DNA from: an uncultured bacterium
GTDB taxonomy: Bacteria; Krumholzibacteriota; Krumholzibacteriia; JACNKJ01
Direction of reading: 5' to 3'
DNA: 64,000 nt
Assembly (NCBI GenBank): GCA_963695095.1
Contig: CAVOFT010000001.1
Coordinates: 1,440,001 to 1,504,000 of the forward strand
Shown: piece by piece, positions 32,934 through 61,700 of the stretch
How positions within the stretch are numbered: position 1 is the first letter of the stretch
Layout of the letters: each line of letters begins with the position of its first letter
Notes under the pieces: model-generated
Told to the model about the DNA's origin: nothing
The model's input: the letters and a program-made list of their open reading frames with translations, nothing else
Databases searched by the model: none
Position numbers and translations under genes: made by a program

Positions 32934-32943
32934 GGAGGAACCC

Positions 32944-33334
32944 ATGAGGCGCAAAGTGATCCAGACACCGGCCGCACCGGCGGCGGTCGGGCCCTACAGC
33001 CAGGCGGTCGCCAGCGGCGATCTCCTGTTGCACCGCCGGCCAGGTGCCGCTGGATCCGGCCACCGGCAAGCTCGTGCCCGGCGACATCGGCGCCCAGACC
33101 CACCAGGTGATGAAGAACCTGGCCGCCGTGCTGGCGGCGGCCGGCGCCGGCTGGCCCGACGTCGTCAAGACCACCTGCTTCCTGGCCGACATGGCGGACT
33201 TCGCCGCCTTCAATGCCGTCTACGCGGAGTACTTCGCCGGGCTGGCGCCGCCGGCCCGCTCGACGGTCGCCGTGGCCGGCCTGCCCCTGGGCGCCCGCGT
33301 CGAAGTGGAACTGCTCGCGCGGCTGCCGGAATAA
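32944..33334 (+). CDS. RidA/YjgF family enamine deaminase (frameshift ~33031)
   Basis: APAAVGPYSQAV then GQVPLDP...VVKTTCFL..M.DF..FN.VY..F...PARSTV.V..LP.GARVEVE. Confidence 0.88.
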
Positions 33335-33423: not shown

Positions 33424-33521
33424 GGGAGTGGATGGGTCCTGGTGGATCCCGAGGACTTCAAATCCTTCTGCCGGGTGCTAATCCCATCCGGGGTGGGTTC
33501 GATTCCCACGCATTCCCGCCA
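33424..33521 (+). tRNA. selC: tRNA-Sec(UCA)
   Basis: 8-position acceptor (7 pairs + G-G), 6-bp D stem GGGTCC/GGATCC with TGGT loop, anticodon loop CTTCAAA, long variable arm CCGGGTG/CATCCGG, T arm GTGGG-TTCGATT-CCCAC, G discriminator + CCA. Confidence 0.93.
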
Positions 33522-41594: not shown

Positions 41595-42122
41595 ATGAGC
41601 GCGATCCTGGGTACGCATCTCCTCGTCGGCGCGCTGGCGGCGGTTCTGGTCCTCGGCCTCTATCACGGCCTCCGCGGCGGGCTGATCCGCACGGCCTTCA
41701 AGCTGCTCGGCTTCCTCGCGGGCCTCTTGCTCGCGCGGCCCCTGGCCACGGCCATCCTGCCCCACCAGCCGGCTGGCTTCGACTTCCCGGGCAGCGGCAT
41801 CATTCTCCTCCTGCTCTGCTTCGCCGGCATCGCCGCCGCCTTCGCCCTGGTCGGCTGGCTGCTCGCCAAGAGCCTGAGCTGGACGCCGCTGGCCTGGCTC
41901 GACCGCGTGGGCGGCGGCCTGCTCGGCGTGTCGATCGGCGTCATCCTGGCGGGTCTGTTGCTCGGCATACTCGATCGCCTCGGCGCGGCAGGACCGCTGA
42001 TCGGCGCGGCTCGCGGCTGGGAGGCCGACTTCCTGCGCGGCCTCGCGGCCGTGTCGGCCGACCTCTTCGCGGCCGTCGAGCGGCTGGGCGGCGGCGGCCC
42101 GATCCCGCCGGGCGCGGTCTGA
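41595..42122 (+). CDS. CvpA family membrane protein
   Basis: G..GLRGGLI, four hydrophobic segments, WLDRVGGGLLG. Confidence 0.85.
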   Translation: MSAILGTHLLVGALAAVLVLGLYHGLRGGLIRTAFKLLGFLAGLLLARPLATAILPHQPAGFDFPGSGIILLLLCFAGIAAAFALVGWLLAKSLSWTPLAWLDRVGGGLLGVSIGVILAGLLLGILDRLGAAGPLIGAARGWEADFLRGLAAVSADLFAAVERLGGGGPIPPGAV

Positions 42123-44549
42123 TGCCCTGGCTCGTGCAGTCGCCGGGGCTGGTCTGCGGCGATGCCGCGCGGCGCCTGGAGTTCCCCGAACTGCTGGCGG
42201 AGCTCGCCGCGCGCGTGCGCTTCGCGCGCAGCGCGGCGGCCTTGACGGCCCTGACGCCGCTGGCGGAGCTGGGGGCCATCGAGGCCCGGCGCGCGCGCGT
42301 CGCCGCCTGGCAGCGCCTGCTCGAGGAAGGGCGCGAGCCCGAGCTGGAGGGACTCGTCGATCTCGGCGAGGGCATCGAGCGCTGCAAGACCCCGGGCGCC
42401 CAGCTGCCCGGCGAGGCCTTCTGGCAGCTCGCCCGCTGCCTGGGCGCCATCGCCCGCCTGGGCGACTTCCTCGCCGACGCCCGCCTGCTGGCGCCCGTCC
42501 TCCACGCGGACTGGGGCAATCCACCGGATCTGCGCGGCCTGGCCGGCGAGATCGAGCGCTGCGTCGACGAGGAGGGCCGCCTGCGGGACGGCGCGAGTCC
42601 CACCCTGGCCCGCCTGCGCGCGGCGATCCGCGAGAGCGAGTCGCGCGTGCGCGGGCGCCTGGACGCCCTCATCAAGGAGCGCCTGGCCGAAGGCGAGCGC
42701 GACCTGCGCCCACGCGTGCGCAGCGGTCGCCTCGTGCTGCCCGTGCGCCGCGAGCAGAAGAGCCAGCTGCCGGGCATCGTCCACGACGCCTCGGCCAGCG
42801 GCAAGACCCTCTTCGTCGAGCCGCTGGAGACCGTCGAGCTGAACAACGCGATCACGGCGCTGCTGGCCGAGGAGGCGCGCGAGTGCGCGCGCGTGCTCAG
42901 GGCGCTCACCGCCCGGGTCGGCGCCTGGGTGGATCCCATCCGCGCCTGCCTGGATGCCTTTCACCGGCTCGAACTGCCCCTGGCCGCCGCGCGCCTGGCC
43001 CGCGAGCGGGACTGGCAGTGGGCGGACTGGTCGCCGCCGGCCGAAGATCGCCTCGACCTGCGCGGGGCGCGGCATCCGCTGCTCGCGCGCTACTTGCCCG
43101 CCGGCGCGGCGCCCGTGCCGCTGGCGCTCGCGCTTGGCGCGGAGCAGCGCCTGCTGCTCGTCACCGGCCCCAACACGGGGGGCAAGACCGTCCTGCTCAA
43201 GACCCTCGGCCTGCTCGTGCTGATGAACCAGTGCGGGCTGCCCCTGCCCGTGGCCGAGGGCAGCCGCCTGCCGCTCTTCACGAGCCTCTTCGCGGATATC
43301 GGCGACGAGCAGTCCCTGCGCGATTCCCACTCCACCTTCAGCGCGCACCTCGCGCGGCTGGGGGAGATGGCGGCGGGCGCGGGACCGGGTGCGCTCATCC
43401 TCGTCGATGAGATCGGCGACGGCACCGATCCCGAGGAGGGGGCTGCGCTCGCGCAGGCCCTGATGGCCCACTGGATCGCCCGCGGGGCGCGGGCGGCCGT
43501 CACCACCCATTTCGGCGTGCTCAAGGGCTTCGCCCAGGGCGCGCCGGGGGCCGTCAATGCGGCGATGGACTTCGATCCCATCCAGCGGCGGCCCCTGTAC
43601 ACCCTCAGCCTCGGCGTGCCGGGGGCCAGCCGCGCGCTCGCCACCGCTCGCCGTCTGGGCATGGATGCCGACGTGCTCGCCGAGGCCGAGCGCCTGCTCG
43701 GCGCCGAGGCCATGCGACTCGAAAGCCTGCTCGAGCGTCTCGAGCGCGAGACGCAGGCGGCCGCCGCGGCCCGCGAGGCGGCCGAACAGCTGCGCGCCGA
43801 GCAGGAGGGCCTCGCCGCCGACTATCGCGATCGCCTCGCGCGGGTGCGCGCCCAGGAGCGCGCCATCCTCGCCGAAGCCCGCGAGCAGGCCGAGGGCTTC
43901 CTCGCGCAAGCTCGGCGTGACTTCGAGCAGGCCGTCCGCTCGCTGCGCGAGCGCGAGGCGGACCGGGAGAGCATCCGCGCCGGCCATGCCCTGCTCGAGA
44001 CCCTGGCGGCCCAGGCGCCCGCGCCGCCGCCGGCGGCTGAGCCGGGGCCTGTGCTCACCAGCTGGCGTGCCGGCGATCGCGTGCGCCTGCGCGCCACCGG
44101 TCAGACGGCGGAGATCCTCGAAGCGGCCGGCGGCGGCCGCCTGCGCGTCTCCCTGCGCGGGCTGCCCATGGTGCTGCCGCTCAGCGAGCTCAGCCCCCTG
44201 CCCGGCGGGAGCGAGGCGGAGGCGGCACGCCCGGCGGAGCGCTTCGCCGGCGTCAGCTACGAGGCCTCGGGTCCGGATTCCTACCGGCTCGACCTGCGCG
44301 GCATGCGCGCGGAGGAGGCGGCCGCGGCGATGGACGCCTTCCTCGACGCGGCCACGCTCGCGGGCTTCCACCTCGTGGAGATCCTCCACGGCAAGGGCGA
44401 GGGCATCCTGCGCGAGGAAGTGCGCCGGGCCCTGGCCCGGGATCCGCGCGTGGGGCGTTTCACGCTCGCCGATCAGAATCGCGGCGGCAGCGGCGTCACC
44501 GTGGCGCGCCTGGCGGGGGACCCGGAGCCCGCGGGGAGGCCGGCCGTGA
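42122..44549 (+). CDS. mutS2: Endonuclease MutS2 (reads in-frame into dnaG in this sequence)
   Basis: LEFPELL, GIVHDASASGKTLFVEP, TGPNTGGKT, DIGDEQS..STFSAH, DEIGDGTDP.EG, Smr LDLRG..ILHGKG.G.LR...GGSGVT; likely native stop TGA 44547-44549. Confidence 0.88.
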
Positions 44550-46387
44550 CTAGGCCCGATCCCGGCGCTGCCCAGAGCGATTTCAAGGAGAAGGTGCGCG
44601 CGGCCACCGACATCGTCGAGCTGATCGGCCAGTACCTGAAGCTGCGCCGGGCCGGGAGCAACTGGGTGGGCCTGTGCCCCTTCCATCACGAGAACAGCCC
44701 GAGCTTCAACGTGAACCAGGAGCGGCAGAACTTCTACTGCTTCGGCTGCGCGAAGGGCGGCGACGTCTTCAGCTTCGTCATGGAGCAGGAGGGCCTTGCC
44801 TTCCGCGAGGCGCTCGAGCACCTGGCGCGGCGGGCGGGGATCCCCATCGAGGCGGCCGGGGGCGGCAGCGGCGAGAGCAGCCGGGCCGAACTCTATCAGC
44901 GCATCAATGCCGCCAGCGCCGACTTCTATGGCCGCCAGCTGCGCGAATCGCCGGCCGCCGAGCGCGCGCGGGACTACCTGCGCCGGCGCGACGTGGGCGA
45001 GGAGGCCTGGCGCGACTGGGGCCTGGGCTACGCCGGGCAGTCCTGGCGCGACCTCCACCAGCAGCTCGCCCGGCAGGGCTTCCCGCCCGAGCGCTGCGAG
45101 GAACTGGGGCTCATCCGCCGCAAGGCCTCGAGTCCGGGCCACTACGACGCCTTTCGCAATCGTGTCATGTTTCCTGTCCGCTCGGTGGCCGGGCGGGTGC
45201 TGGGCTTCGGCGCCCGCGTGCTCGACGACAGCCTGCCCAAGTACATCAACTCGGCCGACAGCCCGGTCTACACGAAGAAGGCCATCCTCTACGGCCTGGA
45301 CCGCGCCTGGCGGGAAATCCGCCGCGCCAAGCTCGGCATTCTCGTGGAGGGCTACTTCGACGTGATCAGCCTGCATCTGGCGGGCGTCCCCCTGGCCGTC
45401 GCCGCCTGCGGCACCGCCTTCAGCAGCGATCAGGCCAAGCTCCTGGGCCGCTACACCGAGCGGGTCTGCGTCGTCACCGACGGCGACGCCGCCGGGCAGA
45501 AGGCGGCGGTGCGGGCGGCGGGCGTGCTGATCACCGTCGGCCTCAGGCCCAGCGTGCTCGCGCTGCCGGCCGGCGAGGATCCGGACAGCCTGATCCGCGC
45601 CGAGGGCGGCGAGGCCTTCCGCGAGCGGCTGCGCGGGGCGCCGGATTACTTCGACTACATGCGCGGCCTGGTCAGGGCCCGCGGCGACAAGCCGGCCGAG
45701 CGGGAGCGCGCCGTGCGCCGGATACTGGAGGACTTGACCGCTTTCTCCGAAGGCGACCTGCGCCTGGAGAGCCTGCTCGAGGAGCTCACGGCGGCCTTCG
45801 GGGTCGAGCGCACGGTGCTCGTGCACACCCTGCGCGAGACGCGGCGCCGCGCCGGCGACGGCAGGCGCGGGGCGCGGCGGCCGCCCGCGGCCGCCGGCGA
45901 GGCCGAAGCCGCCGTCGAGGCGGGCAGCCCCGAGCAGGAGCGCCTGGAGAAGCTGATGCTGGCCGTGCTGCTCGCTGCGGGTCCGGAGCGGGAGACGGTC
46001 TTCAGCCTGCTGCGGCCCGAGCACTTCGCCGACCCCTTGCGCGCCCGGCTCTACTCCGTGCTGGCGGCCCTGGGCCGGGCGCCGGACAGCCGGGAGCTGG
46101 GCGAGCTGTTTCCCGACCCGGCCGCGGCGCGGGCCGTCACCGAGCTGACCTTCCTGCGCCTGCCGGCAGGAAGCGCGCAAGATTGGGTGCGCACGAGCGC
46201 CCTGCGACTTAAATTGAAGCGGATGCTCGACCTCAACCGCGACTTCCAGGGCCGGGTACAGGCCCTGGAACTGGCGGGCGAGGAGGTCTCGGCGGATCTT
46301 CTCGCCGAGTGGCGACACGTGGGCGAAGCCATTCGCGGCCTGCGGGCCGAGATCGATCGCATTCTCGAAGCACAGAAGGGGTCCTGA
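44546..46387 (+). CDS. dnaG: DNA primase
   Basis: GGGGAGG RBS + GTG 44546; Zn finger CPFH.E.SPSF...YCFGC, FRNRVMFP, KYINS, Toprim VEGYFDV, DGD.AG, DPD. Confidence 0.92.
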   Translation: MTRPDPGAAQSDFKEKVRAATDIVELIGQYLKLRRAGSNWVGLCPFHHENSPSFNVNQERQNFYCFGCAKGGDVFSFVMEQEGLAFREALEHLARRAGIPIEAAGGGSGESSRAELYQRINAASADFYGRQLRESPAAERARDYLRRRDVGEEAWRDWGLGYAGQSWRDLHQQLARQGFPPERCEELGLIRRKASSPGHYDAFRNRVMFPVRSVAGRVLGFGARVLDDSLPKYINSADSPVYTKKAILYGLDRAWREIRRAKLGILVEGYFDVISLHLAGVPLAVAACGTAFSSDQAKLLGRYTERVCVVTDGDAAGQKAAVRAAGVLITVGLRPSVLALPAGEDPDSLIRAEGGEAFRERLRGAPDYFDYMRGLVRARGDKPAERERAVRRILEDLTAFSEGDLRLESLLEELTAAFGVERTVLVHTLRETRRRAGDGRRGARRPPAAAGEAEAAVEAGSPEQERLEKLMLAVLLAAGPERETVFSLLRPEHFADPLRARLYSVLAALGRAPDSRELGELFPDPAAARAVTELTFLRLPAGSAQDWVRTSALRLKLKRMLDLNRDFQGRVQALELAGEEVSADLLAEWRHVGEAIRGLRAEIDRILEAQKGS

Positions 46388-46389
46388 GC

Positions 46390-48150
46390 GTGAGCAAGTC
46401 CAAGACCAGCCGCATCATCGTCGCCCTCAAGAAGCTCGTCAGCAAGAAGAACTACATCCTCCACGACGACATCTACGAGCAGTTCTCGGAGGACTTCGAT
46501 ATCGATGCCGTGGACGTGGTCTACTCCCGCATCGCCGAGCTCGGCATCGAGGTCTTCGACAGCGAGGAGGAGGCCAAGACCAAGCTGCGCGCCCAGGAGG
46601 CGCGGGCCAAGAAGCTCAACGAGAAGATGAGCCAGGCCGCCGCCCAGAGCATGCGCTACGACGACCCCGTGCGCATGTACCTGCGCGAGATGGGCAAGGT
46701 GCCGCTCCTGGACCGCGAGGGCGAGATCGCCATCGCCAAGCGCATCGAGGCCGGCAAGCACCAGGTGCTCGAAGCGCTCTTCCGTTCGCCCTTCTCCGAG
46801 GCCCATGTCGATCAGTGGGTGGAGGCCCTCGCGAACGGCACGCTCAGCGTCGAGGACCTGATCCAGGTGGACACGGGCGGCTACCAGGAGCACCACACGC
46901 CCCAGAAGCGGGACAAGGCCACGGCCGTGCGCACGCTGCGCCGCCTGCGCAAGCTGGGCGAGGAGATCCTGGCCTGCGAGGAGAAGCTGGCCAGGGCCGA
47001 CACCGAGCGCAAGAAGCAGGCCGCCGAGAAGGCCCTGCAGACGCGGCGCGAATCCTGGCTGGAGTTGCTGCACGGGCTCAGCCTGCAGCCCAAGCGCGTG
47101 GACGAGCTGGTCCTCGCCCTGCGCGAGGTGCACGACGAGTTCCAGGCGGCGGCCAAGCAGGTGCACCACTACGAGAAGTTCCTCGGCATGGACTACGATG
47201 GCTTGCGCGAGACCATCGCCCGCATGAAGGACCGCGGCTGGAAGAACATCCAGCTGCGCGGCAAGGGGCGCTGGACGCTCACGGCGCTCGAGGACCTGCG
47301 CCGCAAGCAGTACGGCCTGCATCCGCAGCCTCAAGACCCTGGAGAAGGAGCGCGGCGTCACCCGCGAGCAACTCGAGGCGCTGCTCACCCGCGTCGAGCA
47401 GGGGGAGCGCCGCGGCGAGCAGGCCAAGAAGGAGATGATCGAGGCCAACGTGCGCCTGGTGATCTCCATCGCCAAGCGCTACACGAACCGCGGCCTCGAG
47501 TTCCTGGACCTGATCCAGGAGGGCAACGGCGGCCTGATGCGCGCCGTCGACAAGTTCGACTACCGCAAGGGCTACAAGTTCTCCACCTACGCGCACCTGG
47601 TGGATCCGGCAGGCGATCACGCGCGCCATCGCCGACCAGGCGCGCACCATCCGCGTGCCCGTGCACATGATCGAGGCCATCAACAAGGTGAGCCGGGCCA
47701 GCCGCAAGCTCATCCAGGAGTACGGCCGCGAGCCGACCCCGGAGGAGGTGGCCAAGTACCTCGCCTTCCCCGTGGAGAAGGTGAAGAGGGTCATGAAGGC
47801 CAGCATGGAGCCGATCAGCCTGGACCGGCCCATCGGCGAGGACGAGGACAGCAACCTCGGCGACTTCATCGAGGACACTGCACGCCGACAGCCCGGCCTC
47901 ACTCGGCCGCGCACTCGATGCTGCAGGATCAGACTCACCAAGGTGCTGTCCACGCTGACCCGGCGCGAGGAGAAGGTGATCCGCCTGCGCTTCGGCCTCG
48001 GCGACGGCACGCCCGCGCACCCTGGAGGAGGTGGGCACCATCTTCCAGGTCACCCGCGAGCGCGTGCGGCAGATCGAGGCCAAGGCGATTCGCAAGCTCC
48101 AGCACCCCAGCCGCGCCCGCAAGCTCAAGGGCTACGTGGAGAACTACTAG
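46390..48150 (+). CDS. rpoD: Primary sigma factor sigma70 (about six apparent single-base insertions)
   Basis: [83 protein letters not shown] across several frames. Confidence 0.93.
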
Positions 48151-48163
48151 GCGTCAGTCCGGG

Positions 48164-48188
48164 GGCGGGCCGGGCAAAGCGGCCCGCC
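48164..48188 (+). terminator. Hairpin after rpoD (possible terminator)
   Basis: GGCGGGCCG...CGGCCCGCC followed by AT-rich sequence. Confidence 0.5.
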
Positions 48189-48192
48189 AATC

Positions 48193-48233
48193 TTGATTAT
48201 TCGGTCGATTACTCGCTAATTATGGCCTATCCT
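48193..48233 (+). promoter_or_regulatory. AT-rich promoter region of the barrel-to-cytochrome operon
   Basis: TCGATT-N17-TATCCT (alternatively TTGATT-N18-TAATTA); contains TTCGGTCGAT, shared with 57322-57331. Confidence 0.45.
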
Positions 48234-48302
48234 TAGTGGGCTCGAACCCGGACTCCGCACCCGGCGCCGCCCTCCGGGCGGCCTCGCGCAGCAACGAAGG
48301 CC

Positions 48303-50495
48303 ATGGCCAGCCCCTCCCGCCAGCATCTTGCGCTCCCGTCCCGCCTCTGTGCGCAGGGGCTGCTCCTGGCCGCCCTCGCCCTCGCTTGGCCCGGCAGCGC
48401 CCGCGCCCTGGACGGCAAGCTCGGCTTCCGCCAGAGCCAGCAGGATGGCGGTTTCGGCGCTCAGGACTACAGCCTGCAGGTGATCACCCGCGATGCCTAC
48501 GCCCAGCAGCTGGTGGGCCTCTGGCCGGGCCTGTCCCTGCGCCTGGAGGCCCAGGTCCGGGATGAGGCCACGCAGAGCCGGGTCGGCGCGACGAGCTCGG
48601 CCTGGAATCAGCTCAATCGGCGCGCGGGCATGGCCCTGCGCTACGGGGACCCGCGCCTGCATCTCGAACTCCGAGCCAGCGGCCGCCGCCGGGAACAGGA
48701 GCCCGATCCCGGACCCCGTCTGAGCCAGGACCTCGGCCAGCTCGGCCTCTGGAGCCAGCTGCGGGCCGCTCGCTGGCTTCGCCTGCAGGGCAGCTGGCTC
48801 GAGACGCGGGCCTGGCGCGAGGAGGACGCCCTCGCCGACGTGGAGACCCGCGAATCCCTGCGCTCGGCCAGCGCCGAGAGTCCGCTGTCGATCGGCACCC
48901 TGCGCTACGGCTACTCCCGACAGGCCACCGAGAACCTCGCCCGCGGCAACCTGAGCGTCCACGCGAGCCACCTCGTCGGCTACGACGGCGGCTTCGGCTT
49001 CCAGGACCAGCGCGGCCGGGTGTCCCTGAGCGCCCGCGCCCGCCGCTTCCAGCAGACCCTGACCCAGAGCGAGCTGACGGGCCGCCTCCTGCTCGAACCC
49101 GCGACGGCGGGCCTGCGCATCGACGCCTCGCCGGAGGTGGACGATCCCCTCGAGGAGCCCCTGAGCCTGGTGCCGGCGCTCATCGATCTGGATCGCCGCA
49201 GCGCCACGGTGGTCGATCTGGGCGACGATGCGCCCGTCGGCCTGCAGCTCGGCGGCGACTACCGGAACCTGCAAATCGATCTCGGCGCGCCCACTGCCGT
49301 GGCGGCGGTGCTGCTCTACGTGGACCGCCGTCCCACCGCGCCCCAGCTCATGCAGTGGAGCCTCTACGTGGCCGAGGATCCCGAGGGCCGCCTCTGGACC
49401 CGCCACGAGGCAGCCAGCGCGAGCGCCCGCTATCGAGACTGGGACGAGGACCTTCAGGGCTGGGAGTTCACCTTGCCGGGCGAGCTCGTCCTGCGCCACT
49501 TCAAGCTCGTCAATGCGAAGCTGGGACCGGTGGAGCCCGAGCTGCGGGTCACCGAGATCGAGGCCTACACCGCGGAGACCTTGCCCGCCGGCGAGCGCCA
49601 GGAGACGAGCGACAGCCAGCGCCTGCAGGCGGGCCTCGACTACCGGCTCAGCCAGGACTGGCGCGTACGGGCGGACCTCGCGCTTCGTCTGCGCAACTAC
49701 GCGACGGGGCGGGCGGACCAGGACGATCGCAGCGAGGGCCTGGGTCTCTTCTGGGCCCGGGACGTTTGGTCCGCCGCCGGTCGGCTGGAATGGCGCCGTC
49801 TCGAGAGCGGCGGCCAGCTCGACAGCGACGTCGACACGCGCAGCCTTTCGCTGCGGCGGCGGCTGGCGGGCCGCCACGCCCTCAGCCTGCACCTCGATCA
49901 GCTGGCGGACCGGGGCCGCGGCGCCGATCGCCGGTCCCGGACGATCAGCCTGGGCAGCGAGTGGCAGTTCGCCCCCGGCCTGCGCCTGGATCAGCGGCTG
50001 AGCCACGGCTGGCTGCGCGACGAGGGGCAGAGCTTGAGCTCGCGCTCGCTCACCTCCTACACGGCCCTGCACAGCGTGCCCTTCAGCTGGCTCTTCCTGG
50101 AACTCAGCCGCGTGGATCGCTGGGTGGAGCGGGAGGCGGGCTACGGCTACTCGCGCTTCAACGACACGACGCTCACCCTCGGCTGGACGCCGGTGCCGCT
50201 GATCAGCCTGCGCAGCCACGTCGTCTACCAGGACCGCGGCAGCGGCGAGTGGCTGGTCAACCACAGCCTGGCGTGGACGCCCCTGCCGGGCGGGGACCTG
50301 TCTCTGCGTTTGAACGCCAGCCAGTTCTCTGATACTCGTGTAGATTCCCGCCAGAACGGCGCGGGCGCGACGCTGGCCTGGACGCCGCGCCCGCGGCTGC
50401 TCCTGGAGACCGGCGTGGACGCTCAGCGCTATCGGCGCCCGGAGGGCGTCAGCTCGCCGGTGAACGGCTTCGTGAAGGGCAGCCTCGCCTTCTGA
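48303..50495 (+). CDS. Large outer-membrane beta-barrel with internal discoidin-like insertion
   Basis: Signal peptide ending SARA; amphipathic Arg/Ser/Trp-rich strands; C-terminal Phe (GSLAF); internal IDLG..AV..V.LY...HFKLV...LRVTEIEAY. Confidence 0.7.
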   Translation: MASPSRQHLALPSRLCAQGLLLAALALAWPGSARALDGKLGFRQSQQDGGFGAQDYSLQVITRDAYAQQLVGLWPGLSLRLEAQVRDEATQSRVGATSSAWNQLNRRAGMALRYGDPRLHLELRASGRRREQEPDPGPRLSQDLGQLGLWSQLRAARWLRLQGSWLETRAWREEDALADVETRESLRSASAESPLSIGTLRYGYSRQATENLARGNLSVHASHLVGYDGGFGFQDQRGRVSLSARARRFQQTLTQSELTGRLLLEPATAGLRIDASPEVDDPLEEPLSLVPALIDLDRRSATVVDLGDDAPVGLQLGGDYRNLQIDLGAPTAVAAVLLYVDRRPTAPQLMQWSLYVAEDPEGRLWTRHEAASASARYRDWDEDLQGWEFTLPGELVLRHFKLVNAKLGPVEPELRVTEIEAYTAETLPAGERQETSDSQRLQAGLDYRLSQDWRVRADLALRLRNYATGRADQDDRSEGLGLFWARDVWSAAGRLEWRRLESGGQLDSDVDTRSLSLRRRLAGRHALSLHLDQLADRGRGADRRSRTISLGSEWQFAPGLRLDQRLSHGWLRDEGQSLSSRSLTSYTALHSVPFSWLFLELSRVDRWVEREAGYGYSRFNDTTLTLGWTPVPLISLRSHVVYQDRGSGEWLVNHSLAWTPLPGGDLSLRLNASQFSDTRVDSRQNGAGATLAWTPRPRLLLETGVDAQRYRRPEGVSSPVNGFVKGSLAF

Positions 50496-50521: not shown

Positions 50522-51154
50522 ATGATGGCATGTGAAGGGCGCGAGAAGGGCCGACCGGCCAGGGCAGGGCGCGCGCAGCCGGCAGGCGGCCGCCTGCTGC
50601 CGAGCCTGCTCCTGCTCGTGGGCCTCGCGTCGGCGCTGGGCGCCTGCGCGGCCTCCGTGACGAGCTACCAGCATCCCGGGGTGGATCTGAGCCACGTCCG
50701 GCGCGTGGCCGTGCTGCCCTTCGCCAACCTCAGCGGCGACGAGTTCGCCGATGAGCGGATCGCCTCGCTCTTCCTCACGCGCCTCTTGCGCGCCCAGGTG
50801 GTGGAAGTCGTGGAGGCGGGCGCCGTGCGCGAGGCGCTCATCGCCCAGCGCTTGAGCGCCGGCGCGATCGCCACGCCCGAGCAGCTGGTCGCCCTGGGCG
50901 CCGCCCTGGGCGTGGATGGGCTCTTCGGCGGCACCGTCGAGGAATGCGGCCTGCTGCGCAGCAACCGCGAGTCCCTCAGCCAGGTCACCCTGAGCTTCAC
51001 CCTGACGGAGACCCAGCACGGGGTGCTGGTCTGGCGCGCCCAGACCCACGCCTCGAGCGCCTCCTTCTGGCGCCGGCTCTTCGGCACCGAGGCGCGCTCC
51101 CTGCACGCGGTCAGCGCGGAGGCCGTGGACCGCGCCCTGGGCACCCTGTTTTGA
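50522..51154 (+). CDS. Lipoprotein, GNA1162/DUF799 (CsgG-like) family
   Basis: Lipobox LGAC; VRRVAVLPFANLS, LG..LGVDGL..GTV.E.G, G.LVW. Confidence 0.7.
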   Translation: MMACEGREKGRPARAGRAQPAGGRLLPSLLLLVGLASALGACAASVTSYQHPGVDLSHVRRVAVLPFANLSGDEFADERIASLFLTRLLRAQVVEVVEAGAVREALIAQRLSAGAIATPEQLVALGAALGVDGLFGGTVEECGLLRSNRESLSQVTLSFTLTETQHGVLVWRAQTHASSASFWRRLFGTEARSLHAVSAEAVDRALGTLF

Positions 51155-52260
51155 GCCTGCGCGCCGGCATCCTGCTCCTCGCGGCGCTGCTGATGGCGCC
51201 CGCCCTGACGGCGCCCGCTCCAGCGGCTGCCGAGACCGGCGGGCTGCCCGCAGCGGCGCTGGTTCTCTTCCTGGACGCGGAGAGCGACGCGGCCCTGCCG
51301 GCGGCGCCGGCTCTCCTGCGCGAAACGGCCCGACAGGCGCTGGTGGCGGCCCTGGCCGCCCCGGGCCGGCGCCTGTGCGCCGGTGACGAGGTGGAGGGCT
51401 TGCTTGCCGACGCGCGCGTGCGCTCGCGCCGCGGACTGAGCCGCGAGGTCGTGGCGGCACTCGGCGAGCGCTGCGGCGCCGAGCAGGTCATCATCGCGCG
51501 CCTGGCCTGCGGCCAGGGCAAGCTCTTCCTCGCCCTGCGCGGCCTCGCGGCCGCCGACGGCCGCCTGCTCCAGGTTGCCGTCGCCGAGCAGGACCTCGCC
51601 GGCGGCGAGGACTGGCGGCGGGCCATCGGCGATGCCAGCCTCGAGCTCGCGGCCCGCTGGCAGGAGCCGGCGCCGGATGCCGCCGCGGCCGGCCTCCTGG
51701 TGCTGCCCGCGCGGGGGCCGGGCGTCGATCCCCTGCTCCTGTCGCTCGTCGAGGAGAGCCTGCTCGCGGAACTCCTCGCCCAGGGGCGCTGGCGCATTCC
51801 CGATCCGGCCCTGCTGGTCAGCGCGCTGCGGCAGGCCGGCATCCATCCGGCCAGCATCGGTGCCGCGAGCCGGCGCGCCCTGGCCGCCGAGCTGGGCGCC
51901 GAGTCCCTGCTGCGTCTGAGCGTGAGCGAGTACGAGGCCGGCCTGCCCGGCGCCGGGCTGCGCGGCGCCGGCAGCGGGGACATCGCGGACGAGGACGGGC
52001 GGCGCGGTAGCGCTTCCCGGCGCCCGGGAGCCTCGCCGGCCGCGCGGCAGATCGGTCGGCCGCTCCTGGCGACCCTGGAGCTCGTGAGCGCGGAGAGCGG
52101 ACTGCTCGGCCTGGCCGCCGAGCAGTACCTGCCGGCGCTGTCGCTGCGCGGGAGCTTCGGCCGTGCGCGGCGGCTGCCCTGGGCCGCGCGCTGCGCGGAG
52201 TTGACTGCACCCCTGGCCGCCGCCTTCGCCGTCGCCAGCGCCCCCGGGGGGCAGCCATGA
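51151..52260 (+). CDS. Exported protein with two CsgG/TolB-N-like alpha/beta domains
   Basis: TTG overlapping upstream TGA; signal peptide; twice-repeated L...GAE pattern (LGERCGAEQVI, LAAELGAESLL). Confidence 0.5.
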   Translation: MSLRAGILLLAALLMAPALTAPAPAAAETGGLPAAALVLFLDAESDAALPAAPALLRETARQALVAALAAPGRRLCAGDEVEGLLADARVRSRRGLSREVVAALGERCGAEQVIIARLACGQGKLFLALRGLAAADGRLLQVAVAEQDLAGGEDWRRAIGDASLELAARWQEPAPDAAAAGLLVLPARGPGVDPLLLSLVEESLLAELLAQGRWRIPDPALLVSALRQAGIHPASIGAASRRALAAELGAESLLRLSVSEYEAGLPGAGLRGAGSGDIADEDGRRGSASRRPGASPAARQIGRPLLATLELVSAESGLLGLAAEQYLPALSLRGSFGRARRLPWAARCAELTAPLAAAFAVASAPGGQP

Positions 52261-52316
52261 AGCCGAGGCCCGCCCGCGGCCCCTGCCCGAAACTGCGCAC
52301 GAGAAAGGTAAGCGGC

Positions 52317-54036
52317 ATGCTCAAGCGCTCCCCGCCTGTCCCGCCTGCTGCCCGCAGCCTCCCTGCTGGCGCTGCTCCTGTCCCTGGCCGCGGCGCCCGC
52401 TCCGCAGGACGGCGACGAGCGGCTGCTCGCCTGGGTCAACGGCGAGGCGATCACCCTCGACGATCTCGAGGCGGAGCTGAAGCGGCTGCCGGCGCCGGAT
52501 AGCGCCGCCACGCCGCCCGCGGCCACCGCCGTGCTCCGGCGGCTCGTGCAGGATCGGCTGCTGGAGCAGGAGGGCTATCGCATCGGCGCCGATGGCGAGC
52601 CCGCCGTGCGCAACCAGGTGCAGGATCTCCTGCGCCTGCGCAGCGTGGTCGCGCTGCTGGACTCGATCTCCGCGCCGGGCGCCGAGGAGGGCGCTGCCGA
52701 ACTGGACAGCCTGATGAGCAAGGAGAGCCGGCTCATGCATCTGGCACACATCCTCGTGGCCGAGGAAGGCACCTCCCGCGCCTTGCTGGACAGCCTGGCC
52801 GCCGGCCTGCCCTTCGCGGACCTGGCGCGCCGTCACTCCACCGACGGCAATGCGGCCCGCGGCGGGGATCTCGGCTGGGCGGCCGCAGGCGCCTATGTCC
52901 CCGAGTTCGAAACCGCGCTGGCGCCGCTGGCGCCGGGCGAGGTGTCCGGTCCCGTGCGCACGGAGTTCGGCTGGCACCTGATCAAGCTGCTCGAGGTCCG
53001 CAGCGAGACGGTGGGCCAGTCGCCCGCCATGCGCGAGGCCATGCACAAGACCCTCGAGCGCGAGCAGCGCATGGCCGCCGTGCGCGACTACGTGGCCGGG
53101 CTCCGGGCGCGCTACGGCGTCGCCGTCGACGACTCGCTGCTGGCGAGCCTCGACTTCGGCAGCGAAGACCCGGCGGTTCAGGCCGGCCTGCGCGAGAGCG
53201 ACGCAACGCTGGCCGTGCTGCCCACGGGGCGGCTCACCGTGCAGGGCCTCTACCGGCAGCTCATCTTCAAGTACTTCCACGGGCTGGCCGGGCGCCCCGA
53301 GGCCGCCAGTCTGCGCGACAGGGTCTTCCGCGAGTGGGTGGACGAGGCGCTGCTCAGCCACGAGGCCCGCATCCTGGGCCTGCCCGAGCGGCCGGCGCTC
53401 CGCGCCGAGGCGAAGCGCCTGGAGCGCTCGCTGCTCCGCGAAGAAGTCCTGAAGACCCTGCTGCTCGGCCTCTCGACCGCGGCGCCCGCGGAGGCGGAGC
53501 TGACGGCCTTCTACGCCGCCGATCCCGGCCGCTTCGCCGCGCCGGCGCGCGTCAAGCTGCGCAGCTTGCGCTTCGCCGCGCCCGAGAGCGCCCAGGGCTT
53601 TCGCGCAAAGCTCGAACAGGGAGCCCAGTTCAGCTGGCTCGCCGCGCGCGACCCCGCCGTGCTGGCCGGGCCGCCGCCCTTCGGCGAGGACTGGCTGGAC
53701 CCGGCGACCCTCGACCTGCCGGCTGCAGAGCTCGTGGAGGGGGCCGTGCTGGGTCCGCTCGCCCTCGAGGAGGGCTGGGCGCTGATCCTGGTCCAGGCCC
53801 GCGAGCGGGTGGAGCCGCCGCCCTTCGCCAGCTGCCGCGCCGAGGTCCTGGCGGCCTATCAGCGGGAGCAGAAGCAGGAGGCCATCCGCCGCGCGCTGAA
53901 TCGGCTGGAGCAGGCGGCCACGATCACGATGCTGCCGGCGGCCGAAGCGCGCGTCGCCGCGCGCCTGGCGGCACTCGGCGGGGGCGGGGCGGGCGGCAGC
54001 GGGAACGGCAATCAGCCCAGCGGAGGTCAGCACTGA
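52317..54036 (+). CDS. SurA/PrsA-like peptidyl-prolyl isomerase foldase, two parvulin domains (frameshift ~52330)
   Basis: AAAGG RBS + ATG 52317; signal peptide; LAWVNGEAIT; AHILV...FADLARRHS.D...GGDLGW...EFE.A...GEVSGPVRTEFGWHLIK; second degenerate PpiC domain. Confidence 0.85.
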
Positions 54037-57000
54037 TGAAGACGCGTGCAATCCCGGCCCAGCCCAGCGCTCGCCGCGCGGGCTTGCTCGGACTCGGGGC
54101 CCTGATCCTGCTGCTTGCCGGCATCGGGCTGCCGCGGCCCGCGGCGGCGCCGGGCAAGGGTCTGGGCTCTCGCGACTGCCTGGACTGCCACGAGGAACTC
54201 AAGCGCGAGCTCGGGCGCAAGCATGCCCACGCGCCCTTCGCCGGCAAGGACTGCGAAGCCTGCCACAAGCCGCATGGCCTCATGGGGGGCCTGATCCTGA
54301 AGACCGAGATCAATACGCTCTGCCTGGAGTGCCACGCCGGCGTCAAGGACGCGCGCGAGGCGGCCGTGCTGCATGGTCCCTTCGCGAAGGGCAAGTGCAC
54401 GGACTGCCACGATCCCCATGGCTCGGGCGAGGCGGGGCTCCTGCCCGGCAAGGGCGCCGGGGCCTGCACCGGCTGCCACGACGGCGCCGCCTTCACGGGC
54501 GCCACCCTGCACGCGCCCCTGCGCGACGGGGATTGCGCGGCCTGCCACGCCGGCCATGGCGCGCCCGAACCGGGCCTGCTGCGCAAGCCGGCGACGGCGC
54601 TCTGCCTGGACTGCCACGCGGCCGACCAGGCCCTGCGCAGCCGCCATGGCGGCGTGGACGTGAGCGCGGCGGCCTGTGTCAGCTGCCACGATCCCCACAG
54701 TGCCGCGACGCCGGCCCTGCTCGCCCGCTCCATTCACCCGCCGGTGGCCGACCTCGACTGCGCGAGCTGCCACGAGCTGGATGCAGCCGGCCGCGTCTCG
54801 CCGAGCGGGGATCCCGCCGCCAGCTGCGCCGCCTGCCACGACGAGGGCGAGCGGCGACCGTCGGTACCGCACCCCGCCTTCGCCGACGGCGCCTGCACGG
54901 ACTGCCATTCGCCCCACGGCAGCAGTCAGCCGGCCCTGCTCAGGGATCGTGAGGATCGGCTCTGTCTCGATTGCCACGACGACCAGGGGCGGGACTTCGC
55001 CCGCGCGCACACGCACGCGCCGGCGGCCGCAGGCCGCTGCAGCGCCTGCCACGACGCCCATGGCGCCGAGCAGCCGGCGCTGCTGCGGCAGGAACTCGGC
55101 GCGCTCTGCCGGTCCTGCCATCAGGAAGCGAGCATCACCGCGGGCCCCGGCCAGCACGAGCACAGCGCCACGGCCAGGCGCGCCTGCACGACCTGCCATG
55201 AGCCCCATGGCTCCGAGCAGCCGCAGCTGCTCAACGCCCCGGCGGGCGATCTCTGCCTGTCCTGCCACCTCAAGATCAAGTTGCTCAACGCCTCCGCGCA
55301 TCCCCATGCCGTCGTGGCCAGCGGCGACTGCCTCGCCTGCCACGAAGCGCACGTGGGCACGACGAGCGCGCTGCTCAAGGCGGCGCCGGGCACGCTCTGC
55401 CTGAGCTGCCATGCCGACTTCGCCCAGGCGCCGGCGGGGGGCAGCGTGCATCCACCGGCGGCGGCGGGCGATTGCCTGGACTGCCATGAGCCCCACGGCG
55501 GCGAGCGGCCGGCCATGCTGAGCCAGGCGCCGGAGGCGCTCTGCCTCGCTTGCCACGACACCGGGGCCGGGCTGCCCGTGCCGCATGCGCCGGTGGCCGG
55601 CGGCCGCTGCACGGAATGCCACGATGCCCATCGGGCGCCCGGCCAGCACTTGCTGGCGGCGCCGCCGGCGCTGCTCTGCGCCGGCTGCCATGCGGAGACG
55701 GCGGCCAGCGAGGGCAAGGTCTCCCTGCACCCGCCGGCAGCGGCGGGCGATTGCCTGGACTGCCACCTGCCGCACGGCGGCGAGGCCAAGGGCCTGCTCA
55801 GCCAGGCGCAGCCGGCCCTCTGCTTCGATTGTCACGACGGCGGACGGCGCCGCCTTCCGCGGCGCCCACCTGGGCAGCGCGGACCCCGGCTCGCTGGACT
55901 GCATGGGCTGCCACGAGCCGCACACGGCCGCCGCGCCGGCGCTCATGCATGCCAAGGCGCACCCACCCTTCGCCGATCGCGACTGCCAGGCCTGCCACAA
56001 GGCCGGCGAGACGGCGGTGCCGCGGGGTGTCTGCCTGGACTGCCATGACGATCCCATTGCCGGCCGCAAGCACGTCCACGCACCCGTTGCCTCGGGCGAC
56101 TGCCAGGCCTGCCACAACCCCCATGCCGCCGCCGGTGAGCATCTCTTCGCAGGCAGCGTGGGGGAGAGCTGCTATGGCTGCCATGAGCCCCAGGCCCTCG
56201 CCCCGGTGCCGGCCCTCGCCCACGCGCCGCTGCGCGAGGGGCGCTGCGAGGCCTGTCACGACGGCCATGCCTCGAATCAGCCCGCGCTGCTGCGCCAGAG
56301 CGCGGGCACGCTCTGCCTGAGCTGCCATGCCGAGCTGGGGGACCCGGCTCAGGGCAAGGCCCATGCGCCCGTGGCCCGGGGCGATTGCAGCGTCTGCCAC
56401 GACGCCCACGGCAGCGCGGAGCCGGCCATGCTGAAGAGGGCGCTGCCCGGACTCTGCCTGGACTGCCATAAACTCGGCGCCGCGGGGATGTCCACCGCCC
56501 ATCGCGGCTTCGATCTCGCGGGTGCGGACTGCGCCGGTTGCCACGAGCCCCACCGCTCCCGGCTACCCGCCCTGGGCCGGCAGGGCTCCGTCCACACGCC
56601 CTACGCCGAGAGGCGCTGCGCCGACTGCCATGCCGGGAGCAAGGCGCCGGCGAAGCCCGAGCGGGAACTCTGCCTGGGTTGCCACCGCAGCCTCGGCGAG
56701 GAATTGAAGACGGGCCGCGTGCATCCGGCGCTCGAGCAGGGGGCGGCTTGCAGCAACTGCCATGTACCGCACGCTGCCGCCCAGCCCTGGCTGCTAGCCA
56801 AGGAGCAGGGCGCGCTCTGCGGCCGCTGCCATGCGGAGCAGCAGGACGCCCTGGCGAGCGCGGCTTTCGCGCACCCGCCCGGACCCCGGGGGCTCTGCGC
56901 AAGCTGTCACGACCCCCATGCCGAATCCACCGAGCAGCTGGGACCGACGCCCGAGCTCTGCAGCAAGTGCCACGATTTCAGCAAGCACGTGAGCCATCCG

Positions 57001-57156
57001 CTGGGCGCCGGCGTGCTCGACCCGCGCACTGGCGAGGAGCTGGGCTGTCTGAGCTGCCACGCCGCCCACGGCTCCGTCCAGAAGTACTTCCTCCTGGACG
57101 ACCCGCACGGACGGCTCTGCGTGCAGTGCCACACGGACAAGATCCGCAGCCGCTAG
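54036..57156 (+). CDS. Giant multiheme c-type cytochrome, 42 CxxCH (doubled-CxxCH repeats), ~1039 aa; one inserted base ~55840
   Basis: Signal peptide; 24 CxxCH counted before 55840 and 18 after in the +1 frame; repeat unit HxP..G.CxxCHxPH....LL.....LCxxCH. Confidence 0.9.
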
Positions 57157-57279: not shown

Positions 57280-57400
57280 GTTTCATGATTCGTAAACTAT
57301 GTAATTTCAACGAACTGAATTATCGACCGAAGTGAGAGAATATGGATCCAAGATTAGATGATGTTCTTGACCGATATGATGTGAATTAGGTAACATACAT
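57280..57400 (+). promoter_or_regulatory. AT-rich regulatory region/promoter of the NHL-omcS-like unit
   Basis: Markedly AT-rich ~120 bp; TTGACC-N18-TAACAT at 57367-57396. Confidence 0.6.
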
Positions 57401-57450: not shown

Positions 57451-58583
57451 ATGGAGTCCAGGCCGATGTCCAGCCGATCCATTGCTCGCCTGCTGCTCGT
57501 CCTCATCCAGGTTCCGCTCATCGCGATGCCCGCGGCAGCCACCTGGGTGATGGACTACGCGGGACAACTGTCACCGAATTTTCACGAGCAGGCCTGCAAG
57601 CGGCCCGTCGGGGTGAGCTACGCGCCGACGGGCGATGAAGCTCTGCGTCACCGATGCCGGCGAGCGCAGCCTGCGCGTCTACTCGGGCGAGGGCATCTTC
57701 ACCTTCGCGACCGGGGGCGTGGCCGAACTCGCACAGCCCGGCGACGCCCTGCTCGACGCGATGGGCGGCTTCGTGCTTCTGGACAGCCACAGCGGGCTCG
57801 GCCGCACCCTGCGCCGGCTGGACTATCGCGGCGAGCCGCAGGCCTTCAGCGTCGAGCGCCCCCGCGCGGACTGGAGTCCCCAGCATCTTCTGCTCACTCG
57901 CGACGGCGGCCTGGTGACCGTGGACAACGCGCACCGGCTGCTGTGCAAGCACGACGGCGCCAGCGGCGCCCTGCTCTGGAGCCGCGAGAGTTGTCGGCGG
58001 CCCCGAGGACGTAGACCGCGATCTGGGCCTGGGTCGTCCCGCTGAGACAGCCGATGGCCGCCTCTATCTGCCCAGCGGACTCCTGCACCGCGTGCTCGTG
58101 CACGACGGCGAGGGTCAGCCGCAGGGCGCGTTCGGCCGCTTCGGCTCCGCCCGCGGGCAGTTCGTCTTCCCCGTCGGCGTGGCGATCGGTCCCGAGGGCA
58201 CCGTGCTCGTGCTGGACCGCCTGCGCCATGCGATCCTGCTCTTCGATGCCGAGCAGCATTTCCTGGCCGAGTACGGCAGCTTCGGCGGCCGTCCGGGCCA
58301 GTTCTACCACCCGAACGCCATCGCCGCGATGCCCGATGGCCGCGTCGTCGTGACCCAGGGTTACCTGGGCCGCGTCCAGAGCTTCCGGCTCTACGACGCG
58401 AGCGAGCGGGCCGAGGCCGCCCACTCTGGAGCGCCGGCCTGGCCCTTCGGTCGCGAGCAAACCGTCACTCGCCACGATGTACCAAGGGGGTGCAGCCTTT
58501 CGGTGCCGGCAGCCGGCGCCAACCAAACGCATGCTATCGACTTTTTCCCGCAGTGTCTCCTAGTCCTGAACCCAACATCATGA
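57451..58583 (+). CDS. Secreted NHL-repeat beta-propeller protein (frameshifts ~57640, ~57990, ~58015)
   Basis: Signal peptide; P.GV...LCVTD; FGRFGSARGQFVFPVGVAIGPEG.V.VLD; YGSFGGRPGQFYHPNAIA..DGRVVV.QGYLGRVQ. Confidence 0.8.
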
Positions 58584-58593
58584 GGTAACCGCA

Positions 58594-59697
58594 ATGAGAC
58601 TGTTCAAGCTCATGGGCCTCGCTGCCGCTCTGGTCCTCGCGTCCAGCGGCGCCGCGCTGGCCTTCCACGACGGCGGCGTCGCCGACTGCCAGGGCTGCCA
58701 CACCATGCACAACAGCATGGACGGCGAGCAGGTGGCCGACGTCGCAACCGGCAACGCGTACCTGCTCATCGACGGCAACTCCAGCGACACCTGCCTCAAC
58801 TGCCATGCGGCCTACGGCCAGTTCCTCGGCGGCACGGGCTACGGCCCGGGCGGCGACTTCTACTGGCTCACCAAGACCTACTCCTGGGATGCCCACGGCA
58901 GCACCGTGGAGAGCTCGGGCGACAGCCACGGCCACAACGTCATTTCGCCGGCCTATGGCCTGGCCGAGGACATGACCCTCAGCGAGGCCCCGGGTGGCGA
59001 CTTCCTGTCCACCTACCTGCGCTGCACGAGCTGCCACGATCCCCACGGCAACCAGAGCTTCCGTCTGCTCTACGGCACCGCCATGGGCCCGGTCTACAAC
59101 GGCGGCCGCTATGACTTCGACAGCGATGCGCCCGAGGCCAAGGGCAACAGCCGGCGCACCTACGTCGGCGGCGGCGGCAACGAGACCAACGCTCGCCACA
59201 CCGTCTACAAGTCGGGCATGAGCGAGTGGTGCGCGAACTGCCACACCACCTTCCACTCCGACAACACCAACAACTTCGTGCACCCCACGGGCGAGAACCT
59301 GGGCTCGACGATCGCGGCGGCCTACAACGCCTACATCAGCACGGACGAAGTGGTGGGCGGCGATCCGGCGACCTCCTACTGGGGCATCGTGCCCTTCGAG
59401 GCCGTCAACGTGGACCTGGAGACCGTCAGCACGACCAACAACACGCAGGGTCCGGGCGGCACCGATCAGGTGATGTGCCTGTCCTGCCACCGCGCGCACG
59501 CCTCGGCCTTCGGCGACGCGGGCCGCTGGGACTTCGGCGAGACCTTCATCGCGGAATCCCATCCCCAGCCCACGGACACCGGCTGGACGCAGGAAGACGC
59601 GGACAACATGTACTATGACTACACCTTCGTCCACAACCAGCGCTCGCTGTGCAACAAGTGCCATGTGAAGGACCTGGGTGATGCCCCTTTGGAGTAG
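58594..59697 (+). CDS. omcS-like: OmcS-family hexaheme cytochrome c (nanowire subunit homologue)
   Basis: Signal peptide then FHDGGVADCQGCHTMHNS; six CxxCH; PGGDF.W..KTY.W, GHNV, CTSCHDPHG, GMSEWCANCH, HP.G, PFE, CLSCHRAHAS, QRSLCNKCHVKD, all recalled hallmarks of G. sulfurreducens OmcS/OmcT. Confidence 0.9.
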   Translation: MRLFKLMGLAAALVLASSGAALAFHDGGVADCQGCHTMHNSMDGEQVADVATGNAYLLIDGNSSDTCLNCHAAYGQFLGGTGYGPGGDFYWLTKTYSWDAHGSTVESSGDSHGHNVISPAYGLAEDMTLSEAPGGDFLSTYLRCTSCHDPHGNQSFRLLYGTAMGPVYNGGRYDFDSDAPEAKGNSRRTYVGGGGNETNARHTVYKSGMSEWCANCHTTFHSDNTNNFVHPTGENLGSTIAAAYNAYISTDEVVGGDPATSYWGIVPFEAVNVDLETVSTTNNTQGPGGTDQVMCLSCHRAHASAFGDAGRWDFGETFIAESHPQPTDTGWTQEDADNMYYDYTFVHNQRSLCNKCHVKDLGDAPLE

Positions 59698-59856: not shown

Positions 59857-59929
59857 GGGCCCATAGCTCAGTGGTGAGAGCAGACGACTCATAATCGTTG
59901 GGTCGCAGGTTCAAATCCTGCTGGGCCCA
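59857..59929 (+). tRNA. tRNA with CAT anticodon, most likely tRNA-Ile2 (lysidine)
   Basis: GGGCCCA/TGGGCCC acceptor, anticodon arm GACGA-CTCATAA-TCGTT similar to Ile2 tRNAs; lacks initiator features. Confidence 0.88.
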
Positions 59930-61301: not shown

Positions 61302-61662
61302 GGAAGCGAACCGGATGGTCGCGGAGCTCGTCTCCGAGGAAAGTCCGGGCTCCACAGGGCAGGGTGCTGGGTAACTCCCAGGGGAAGCGATTCCACGGAA
61401 AGTGCCACAGAAAACAAACCGCCCGCTTCATCGCGAGATGGACGGGTAAGGGTGAAAAGGTGAGGTAAGAGCTCACCGGGCGTCCGGCGACGGCGGCCGC
61501 ACGGTAAACCCCACCCGGAGCAAGACCAAATAGGGGAAGAGAGGCGGCCCGCCTCGTTCGACTCCCGGGTAGGTCGCTCGAGGCCGTCGGTAACGGCGGT
61601 CCTAGATAAATGGCCATCCCTCCCCACGGGGAGGACAGAACCCGGCTTACAGGTTCGCTTCC
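61302..61662 (+). ncRNA. rnpB: RNase P RNA (type A)
   Basis: P1 GGAAGCGAACC/GGTTCGCTTCC; GAGGAAAGTCCGGGCT; GAAAGTGCCACAGAAA; GGTAAACCCC; GAGCAAG; ACAGAACCCGGCTTA. Confidence 0.98.
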
Positions 61663-61700
61663 ACTTTCTGCCCGCCTGGGCGCCGCGCCTGCCCGGAACG

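Follow-up and report, generated by a model that had tools for sequence, protein, structure and literature searches.

The omcS-companion (osc) cluster of Geobacter sulfurreducens was reportedly named by Shen et al. 2025. It includes the cytochrome genes oscI (GSU2495) and oscJ (GSU2494) (PMC13194489), the first of which encodes a protein of about 70 kDa with 26 hemes (PMC12977616). The four-gene core operon of SEEP-SRB1 and its relatives (PMC5539420) and OetABI (PMC10553843), both from Desulfobacterota, also combine 26- and 16-heme cytochromes with an isomerase, a propeller protein, a barrel and an OmcS-like cytochrome, and in both the two cytochromes are separate proteins. Here we analysed a window of 64,000 nucleotides from an uncultured bacterium of the class Krumholzibacteriia (contig CAVOFT010000001.1, positions 1,440,001 to 1,504,000), which encodes such a pair as one chain: a cytochrome c of 1039 amino acids with 42 CxxCH motifs, read through one +1 step (54036..57156, forward strand, like the other cluster features given below). 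It is a one-piece variant of the described OscI and OscJ pair and not a new system, since an 11-residue linker makes it a single chain where the described pair has separate genes with their own signal peptides.

Like the osc cluster, the locus has the 26 and 16 hemes collinear and in the same order, homologues at the oscE, oscF, oscG and oscH positions and an OmcS-family hexaheme cytochrome. It differs in that Geobacter has two genes instead of one chain with one signal peptide, in that a promoter-like site of their own precedes the NHL and hexaheme genes, which are located downstream, in having one hexaheme cytochrome where Geobacter has OmcS, OmcT and OscC, in lacking an adjacent OscD, and in its host class. 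The paired-CxxCH repeat is shared with the decaheme cytochrome MtrA/DmsE (PDB 6R2Q; TIGR03508), but the protein has four times the hemes, the barrel encoded in the cluster has no MtrB family match and no MtrC gene lies beside it. The 26+16 operon has already been published, OscI and OscJ have no known function, and the one-piece form turned out to be common. We found no publication on a 42-heme or fused OscIJ protein, and the words "fused" and "fusion" are absent from the main texts of Skennerton 2017 (PMC5539420) and Murali 2023 (PMC10553843); fused forms may appear in Shen 2025 or its supplements. Multiheme proteins generally undergo fusion and fission, and larger cytochromes have been cited, one of them with 113 motifs (PMC11492766), so that size alone is no record.

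The gene is real and is a single protein masked by one indel. The original prediction, made from the letters of this DNA, held that two open reading frames (ORFs) hide one protein of about 1039 amino acids with 24+18 hemes, and this was confirmed. The frame opening with the ATG at 54036 contains 24 CxxCH motifs, the last at 55821, and the frame closing with the TAG at 57156 contains 18, the first at 55900. Joined by one +1 step, located between 55836 and 55900, they yield 1039 residues with 42 motifs and zero stops (the residue at the step is written as X), and all 84 cysteines of the joined protein belong to motifs. Shuffling the same residues (n=2000) gave a mean of 0.57 motifs and a maximum of 5. 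The bias in third-position GC content swaps frames at about 55820-55900, and matches to PF09699 (Pfam) and TIGR01905 run along both halves. The absence of a stop, ribosome binding site, start and second signal peptide at the junction, also claimed before, was likewise found: ahead of its first motif the second frame has start codons only at the ATGs 55585, 55624 and 55690, none of which has a ribosome binding site and none of which is followed by residues resembling a signal peptide. The start at 54036, in contrast, is preceded by a GGAGG ribosome binding site (54022-54026) and overlaps the upstream stop codon (TGATG). It opens a Sec-type signal peptide (54036..54149), recognised from the sequence and from the signal regions of homologues, with a basic N-region, a hydrophobic core and an AAA end, its cleavage site being judged by eye; it has no lipobox Cys.

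A DNA alignment with G002, a genome of the same genus that carries an intact 42-motif gene (65% identity), showed that the extra base falls after heme 24 and before heme 25. The window has the four bases GGAC (55842..55845) for one codon of the intact gene, in a stretch that G002 reads as H-D-G-Q-G-A-G-F. A single extra base had been predicted correctly, but its placement as GAC-G-GCG at about 55840 had to be moved one codon downstream. Most likely the extra base is an assembly error and the gene of the organism is intact, because rpoD (46309-48236) and glmS (31103-32947) are similarly broken in the window, with three frame switches each, and are intact in G002, as is the cytochrome gene, and because this gene is continuous in 15 of 20 loci from relatives. 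Compared with G002, the NHL gene switches frame twice and the cytochrome gene once, and the switches in rpoD, the NHL gene and the cytochrome gene are all +1. Two read runs contained 5-7% of the sequence words. Contigs from public runs, which represent a near relative together with other organisms, omit single bases at several such places, for example at 47594, 47878 and 52329.

If the extra base were real, the gene would be a recent pseudogene giving a truncated 24-heme protein or would use a programmed frameshift, and we regard this as very improbable. Broken copies do occur, as seen in an in-frame TAA in G016 and in the frameshifted oscJ of the Geobacter record G474, and among the public-run pieces listed, which end at 55615 and resume at 56132, no read or contig crosses 55842-55845. 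This is outweighed by the breaks of the same type in rpoD and glmS, by the otherwise intact flanking frames with every cysteine in a motif, by the absence of a homopolymer run at 55842-55845 and by the lack of any interruption at heme 24/25 in the 20 loci from relatives. The frameshift was also rejected as a natural gene boundary, because natural splits fall between hemes 26 and 27. Since the assembly is indel-prone, other split genes in the genome need care. In the window, genes that by eye we take to be mutS2 and dnaG form one ORF of 1421 amino acids (42122-46387), which in G002 are two ORFs in different frames; this is probably another indel and not a fusion.

The match to the Geobacter pair is collinear and in register. 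In blastp comparisons the 26-heme OscI aligned to residues 20-658 with 35% identity and a score of 410 bits, where the next register reached 336, and the intact 16-heme OscJ proteins of G508 and G496 aligned to residues 665-1032 with 36-37% identity and 248-254 bits, against about 210; overall, identity to OscI and OscJ is 34-37%. Both pieces of the frameshifted G474 OscJ agree with the latter placement. With a stricter score that uses only the linkers, the in-register shift came first for five of seven proteins and second for the other two, where it was beaten by an 8-linker overlap arising from internal duplication. The proposed correspondence of a 26+16 Geobacter pair to the 42-heme protein, beside an OmcS-family gene, was thus borne out. 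The OmcS of G474 matches PDB 6EF8 over all 407 residues, its cluster occupies the position published for the omcS region (PMC3495685), and its 660-residue protein with 26 motifs fits the description of GSU2495 (PMC12977616). The oscJ gene of this record (L119:4190-5494) holds 10 and 5 motifs in its two pieces, with the sixteenth cut by the break, and an oscJ frameshift at position 868 has been listed (PMC13194489). At the C-terminus of OscJ in L099, L102, L103, L104 and L118, a Met takes the place of the last conserved distal His (CHxx-MG), which suggests a His/Met terminal heme in some split OscJ forms.

Many other genomes also carry the one-piece form. The first half of the gene matched 39 of the 61 genomes searched, and 20 relatives' loci were drawn from the best of these. 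Fifteen carry a continuous gene (14 with 42 motifs, one with 41), which answers the homologue search for a continuous ORF that had been proposed with the original prediction; four are split into 26+16, with a second gene that has its own start and signal peptide, and one has an in-frame stop. This last locus, G016, was rejected as a split form, as it is a fused gene with a TAA. A profile search gave 649 matches, and exactly 42 motifs were present in 84 of the best 120, a few of the 84 being identical to proteins of the loci analysed here. The homologues come from sources including Latescibacterota, Krumholzibacteria, Zixibacteria, GN15, Gemmatimonadaceae and the FCB group. Barrel-sized, lipoprotein and multiheme neighbours were present at every fused locus for which gene order was listed.

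Within Krumholzibacteriota, the C-terminal module was found in 63 of 181 genomes, which extends OmcS-type electron-transfer clusters to about one third of the genomes searched in this phylum; in 42 of the 63 it lies in an open frame of at least 1000 codons, and motifs were counted in 15 of these long frames. In Thermodesulfobacteriota, the phylum of G061, 61 of 401 genomes matched and all 20 loci examined were 26+16, in a sample chosen with a 26-heme query that favours split forms. In the order of G319, 37 of 201 genomes matched; one of them, G598, carries a fused gene with 42 motifs, which groups with a Krumholzibacteriia sequence. A second type of cluster (L029-L035, L037, L039, L040 and L120) keeps the 41-42-heme gene but combines it with a shorter barrel-like gene, which in most cases encodes about 540-640 amino acids. 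These clusters also encode a pair of small lipoproteins and, upstream, one or two cytochromes with 5-9 hemes, and they lack a neighbouring isomerase gene. The proteins P0086, P0093, P0095, P0100 and P0102 form a separate set of about 980-1060 amino acids with 38 motifs and different termini.

The chain is built of two-heme repeats arranged in four modules of 9+17+9+7 hemes. At the OscI/OscJ boundary between hemes 26 and 27 (55984..56046), split forms end one gene with a stop and open the next with its own start and signal peptide. Here, the 11-residue linker contains neither a stop nor a second signal, and the junction resembles the internal ones at 9/10 and 35/36. As this natural join leads from the last heme of OscI to the first of OscJ through about 11 residues, the pair probably works end to end as one chain. 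Across 98 homologues we counted 42 conserved His columns outside the motifs, distributed 9/17/9/7 over the modules, and 39 of them are conserved at 99-100%. All hemes are probably bis-His ligated, and a sufficient number of His in each module points to an electron carrier rather than a catalyst. The idea that a heme borrows a His from a partner protein was rejected, since the counts close within each module.

For the G002 protein, a predicted model reached a mean pLDDT (predicted local distance difference test) of 86 and a pTM (predicted template modelling) score of 0.56. Its only clear structural match was MtrA (Z 11.1, 211 residues, root mean square deviation 3.7), on which ten consecutive hemes (residues 301-536) superpose, so that the structure prediction suggested earlier yielded an MtrA-like local fold. 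In MtrA, the distance between heme 1 and heme 10 is 80 A (PMC7198977); scaled from this, the 42-heme chain could be up to about 36 nm long if straight, which is an upper estimate. Many of the homologues P0026-P0064 have about 1065 amino acids, and their alignment consensus shows about 24 extra residues between hemes 22 and 23.

With modest confidence, we consider it on balance probable that the intact gene encodes a Sec-exported, MtrA-type chain of 42 hemes that would be located in the periplasm, docked at a barrel/lipoprotein assembly, and would exchange electrons with the OmcS-family cytochrome. The protein would be exported by Sec and loaded with 42 c-type hemes, and would fold as a long chain of two-heme repeats in four modules. 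It would dock at the co-encoded assembly of the outer membrane and connect carriers in the periplasm electrically with the OmcS-family cytochrome that the cluster exports. It might also span the envelope or feed a nanowire, as first proposed. The genome encodes a cytochrome c assembly gene, and the core formed by the 26- and 16-heme proteins, the isomerase and the propeller has been described as periplasmic and of unknown function (Skennerton 2017, PMC5539420).

Several observations weigh against this reading. Homologues were not expressed in metal respiration in four cultured species (Skennerton 2017, PMC5539420), and one of the two cytochromes has been placed outside the cell as a lipoprotein (Murali 2023, PMC10553843). 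With a rough pattern, a lipobox-like Cys was found in 12 of 29 split 26-heme forms and in 8 of 100 rows of 42-heme proteins; together with the extracellular placement this means that the location may vary. Among Geobacter genomes that have the block, only some encode true OmcS, and OscC-type hexahemes are putative filament formers. Iterated profiles (L021-L026) found no OscD homologue adjoining the cluster, and the sole OscD match in the genome is partial (E 3e-6) and about 350 kb away. In addition, three of the His columns are less conserved (76-89%), one His column is offset by a residue in this clade, and with a pTM of only 0.56 the overall shape and length of the chain are not fixed.

It is rather unlikely, in our view, that the protein crosses the outer membrane as one chain inside the OscE barrel, its export being arrested as it is in MtrAB, or that it is fully secreted. 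One polypeptide would then do the work of the periplasmic and the extracellular cytochrome of OetABI. Murali 2023 (PMC10553843) describes a periplasmic OetA and an extracellular lipoprotein OetB on a porin, and a single chain without a lipobox can keep this inside/outside topology only by threading the barrel; the one-piece join thus constrains the picture of cytochromes on opposite sides of the outer membrane. Threading is also in line with the MtrA-like fold, since stalled excretion holds MtrA inside MtrB (PMC7198977), and with the adjacent barrel gene. However, the Geobacter barrel and lipoproteins have been reported as the secretion route of OmcS (PMC13194489, summarising Shen 2025), family and profile searches gave no MtrB family match for the barrel, the 42-heme protein itself lacks a lipobox, and the identity of the 26-heme protein as OetA or OetB is not confirmed. 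A complex prediction of the barrel with the last eight hemes scored 0.00 and carries no weight either way. We also find it unlikely that the protein chiefly stores electrons in the periplasm, or gives redox assistance in maturing and loading the OmcS-type cytochrome, instead of acting as a through-going wire. Co-encoded chaperone and secretion genes, the small space of about 24 residues per heme, which leaves little room for other functions, and the lack of induction of homologues during metal respiration (PMC5539420) would fit such a role, but the heme total is exactly 42 in several phyla, whether the protein is fused or split, and this would be easier to reconcile with a set distance or docking geometry than with storage in bulk. 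Distinctly doubtful is a more far-reaching proposal, in which the chain threads the OscE barrel, spans the envelope with a length of at most about 36 nm, is ancestral to the 26+16 pair by fission and acts in several uncultured phyla as a heme-number ruler from the inner membrane to the nanowire.

A tree of 62 rows requires two changes between fused and split forms. A single split clade was rejected (approximately unbiased test, p-AU 2e-71; 28 rows, tested after the first tree), a rejection that depends on a single protein, P0075, which comes from a contig of 3.5 kb and falls within the split forms. Judged from these trees, fused and split forms appear to have switched at least twice. Midpoint rooting put fused forms at the base, and rooting by modules (hemes 1-9 against 27-35; 45 of the 62 rows) told the two modules apart (98) without placing the root, so that "fusion" describes here a state with no shown direction. 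Of the earlier fusion claim, the one-piece state therefore stands and the origin by fusion is not established; an ancestral form that was later split is possible.

The links of the upstream neighbours to osc genes come from iterated profiles over 46 loci connecting window or G002 genes to those of G474, and the names oscD to oscH are tentative, given according to where the genes lie relative to oscC and oscI. At the oscE position lies a predicted outer-membrane beta-barrel of 730 amino acids with an inserted CBM32/F5-8-like domain (48303..50495). The iterated profile linked it to the Geobacter protein with E 1e-192, whereas pairwise identity is only 27% over 332 columns (E 1e-9); its Atlas neighbours are barrel clusters, and folding from the single sequence gave an unusable model (pLDDT 32). 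It is followed by an LpoB/GNA1162-like lipoprotein at the oscF position (50522..51154, E 3e-19), an OscG-like protein, likewise of lipoprotein type (51157..52260, start approximate; profile E 1e-12 to the Geobacter protein), and a PpiC/SurA-type peptidyl-prolyl isomerase at the oscH position (52308..54036, start approximate), the 5´ end of which probably contains a further surplus base near 52329.

Downstream, a sigma-70-like promoter (57367..57396), identified as a consensus match only, precedes the NHL and hexaheme genes, and a TTGAC box occupies its place in all six loci with the same gene order. The promoter also has a Rex-like box, which is shared only with G002 and gained no additional support. 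The NHL-repeat beta-propeller gene (57451..58583), with two +1 frame switches and intact in G002, matched the NHL gene upstream of omcS in G496 with E 6e-10 and the one after oscJ (GSU2493-type) with 7e-4. The OmcS-family hexaheme cytochrome (58594..59697, 367 amino acids; PDB 6EF8, E 2e-53) is 38% identical to OscC, 36% to OmcT and 35% to OmcS and is not assignable to one of the three. It retains His16, which we take to be the inter-subunit heme ligand of OmcS. In OmcS, one heme ligand is supplied by the neighbouring subunit (PMC6584659). Two more OmcS-family cytochromes are encoded in other parts of this genome, at G000:C1:3043633-3045195 and C2:22997-24358, the latter on a 29-kb contig, and several other ORFs of the genome contain 11-20 CxxCH motifs. 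The window also contains a tRNA-Sec (33424-33517), a tRNA just after the hexaheme gene (59857-59929) and an RNase P RNA (61303-61665).

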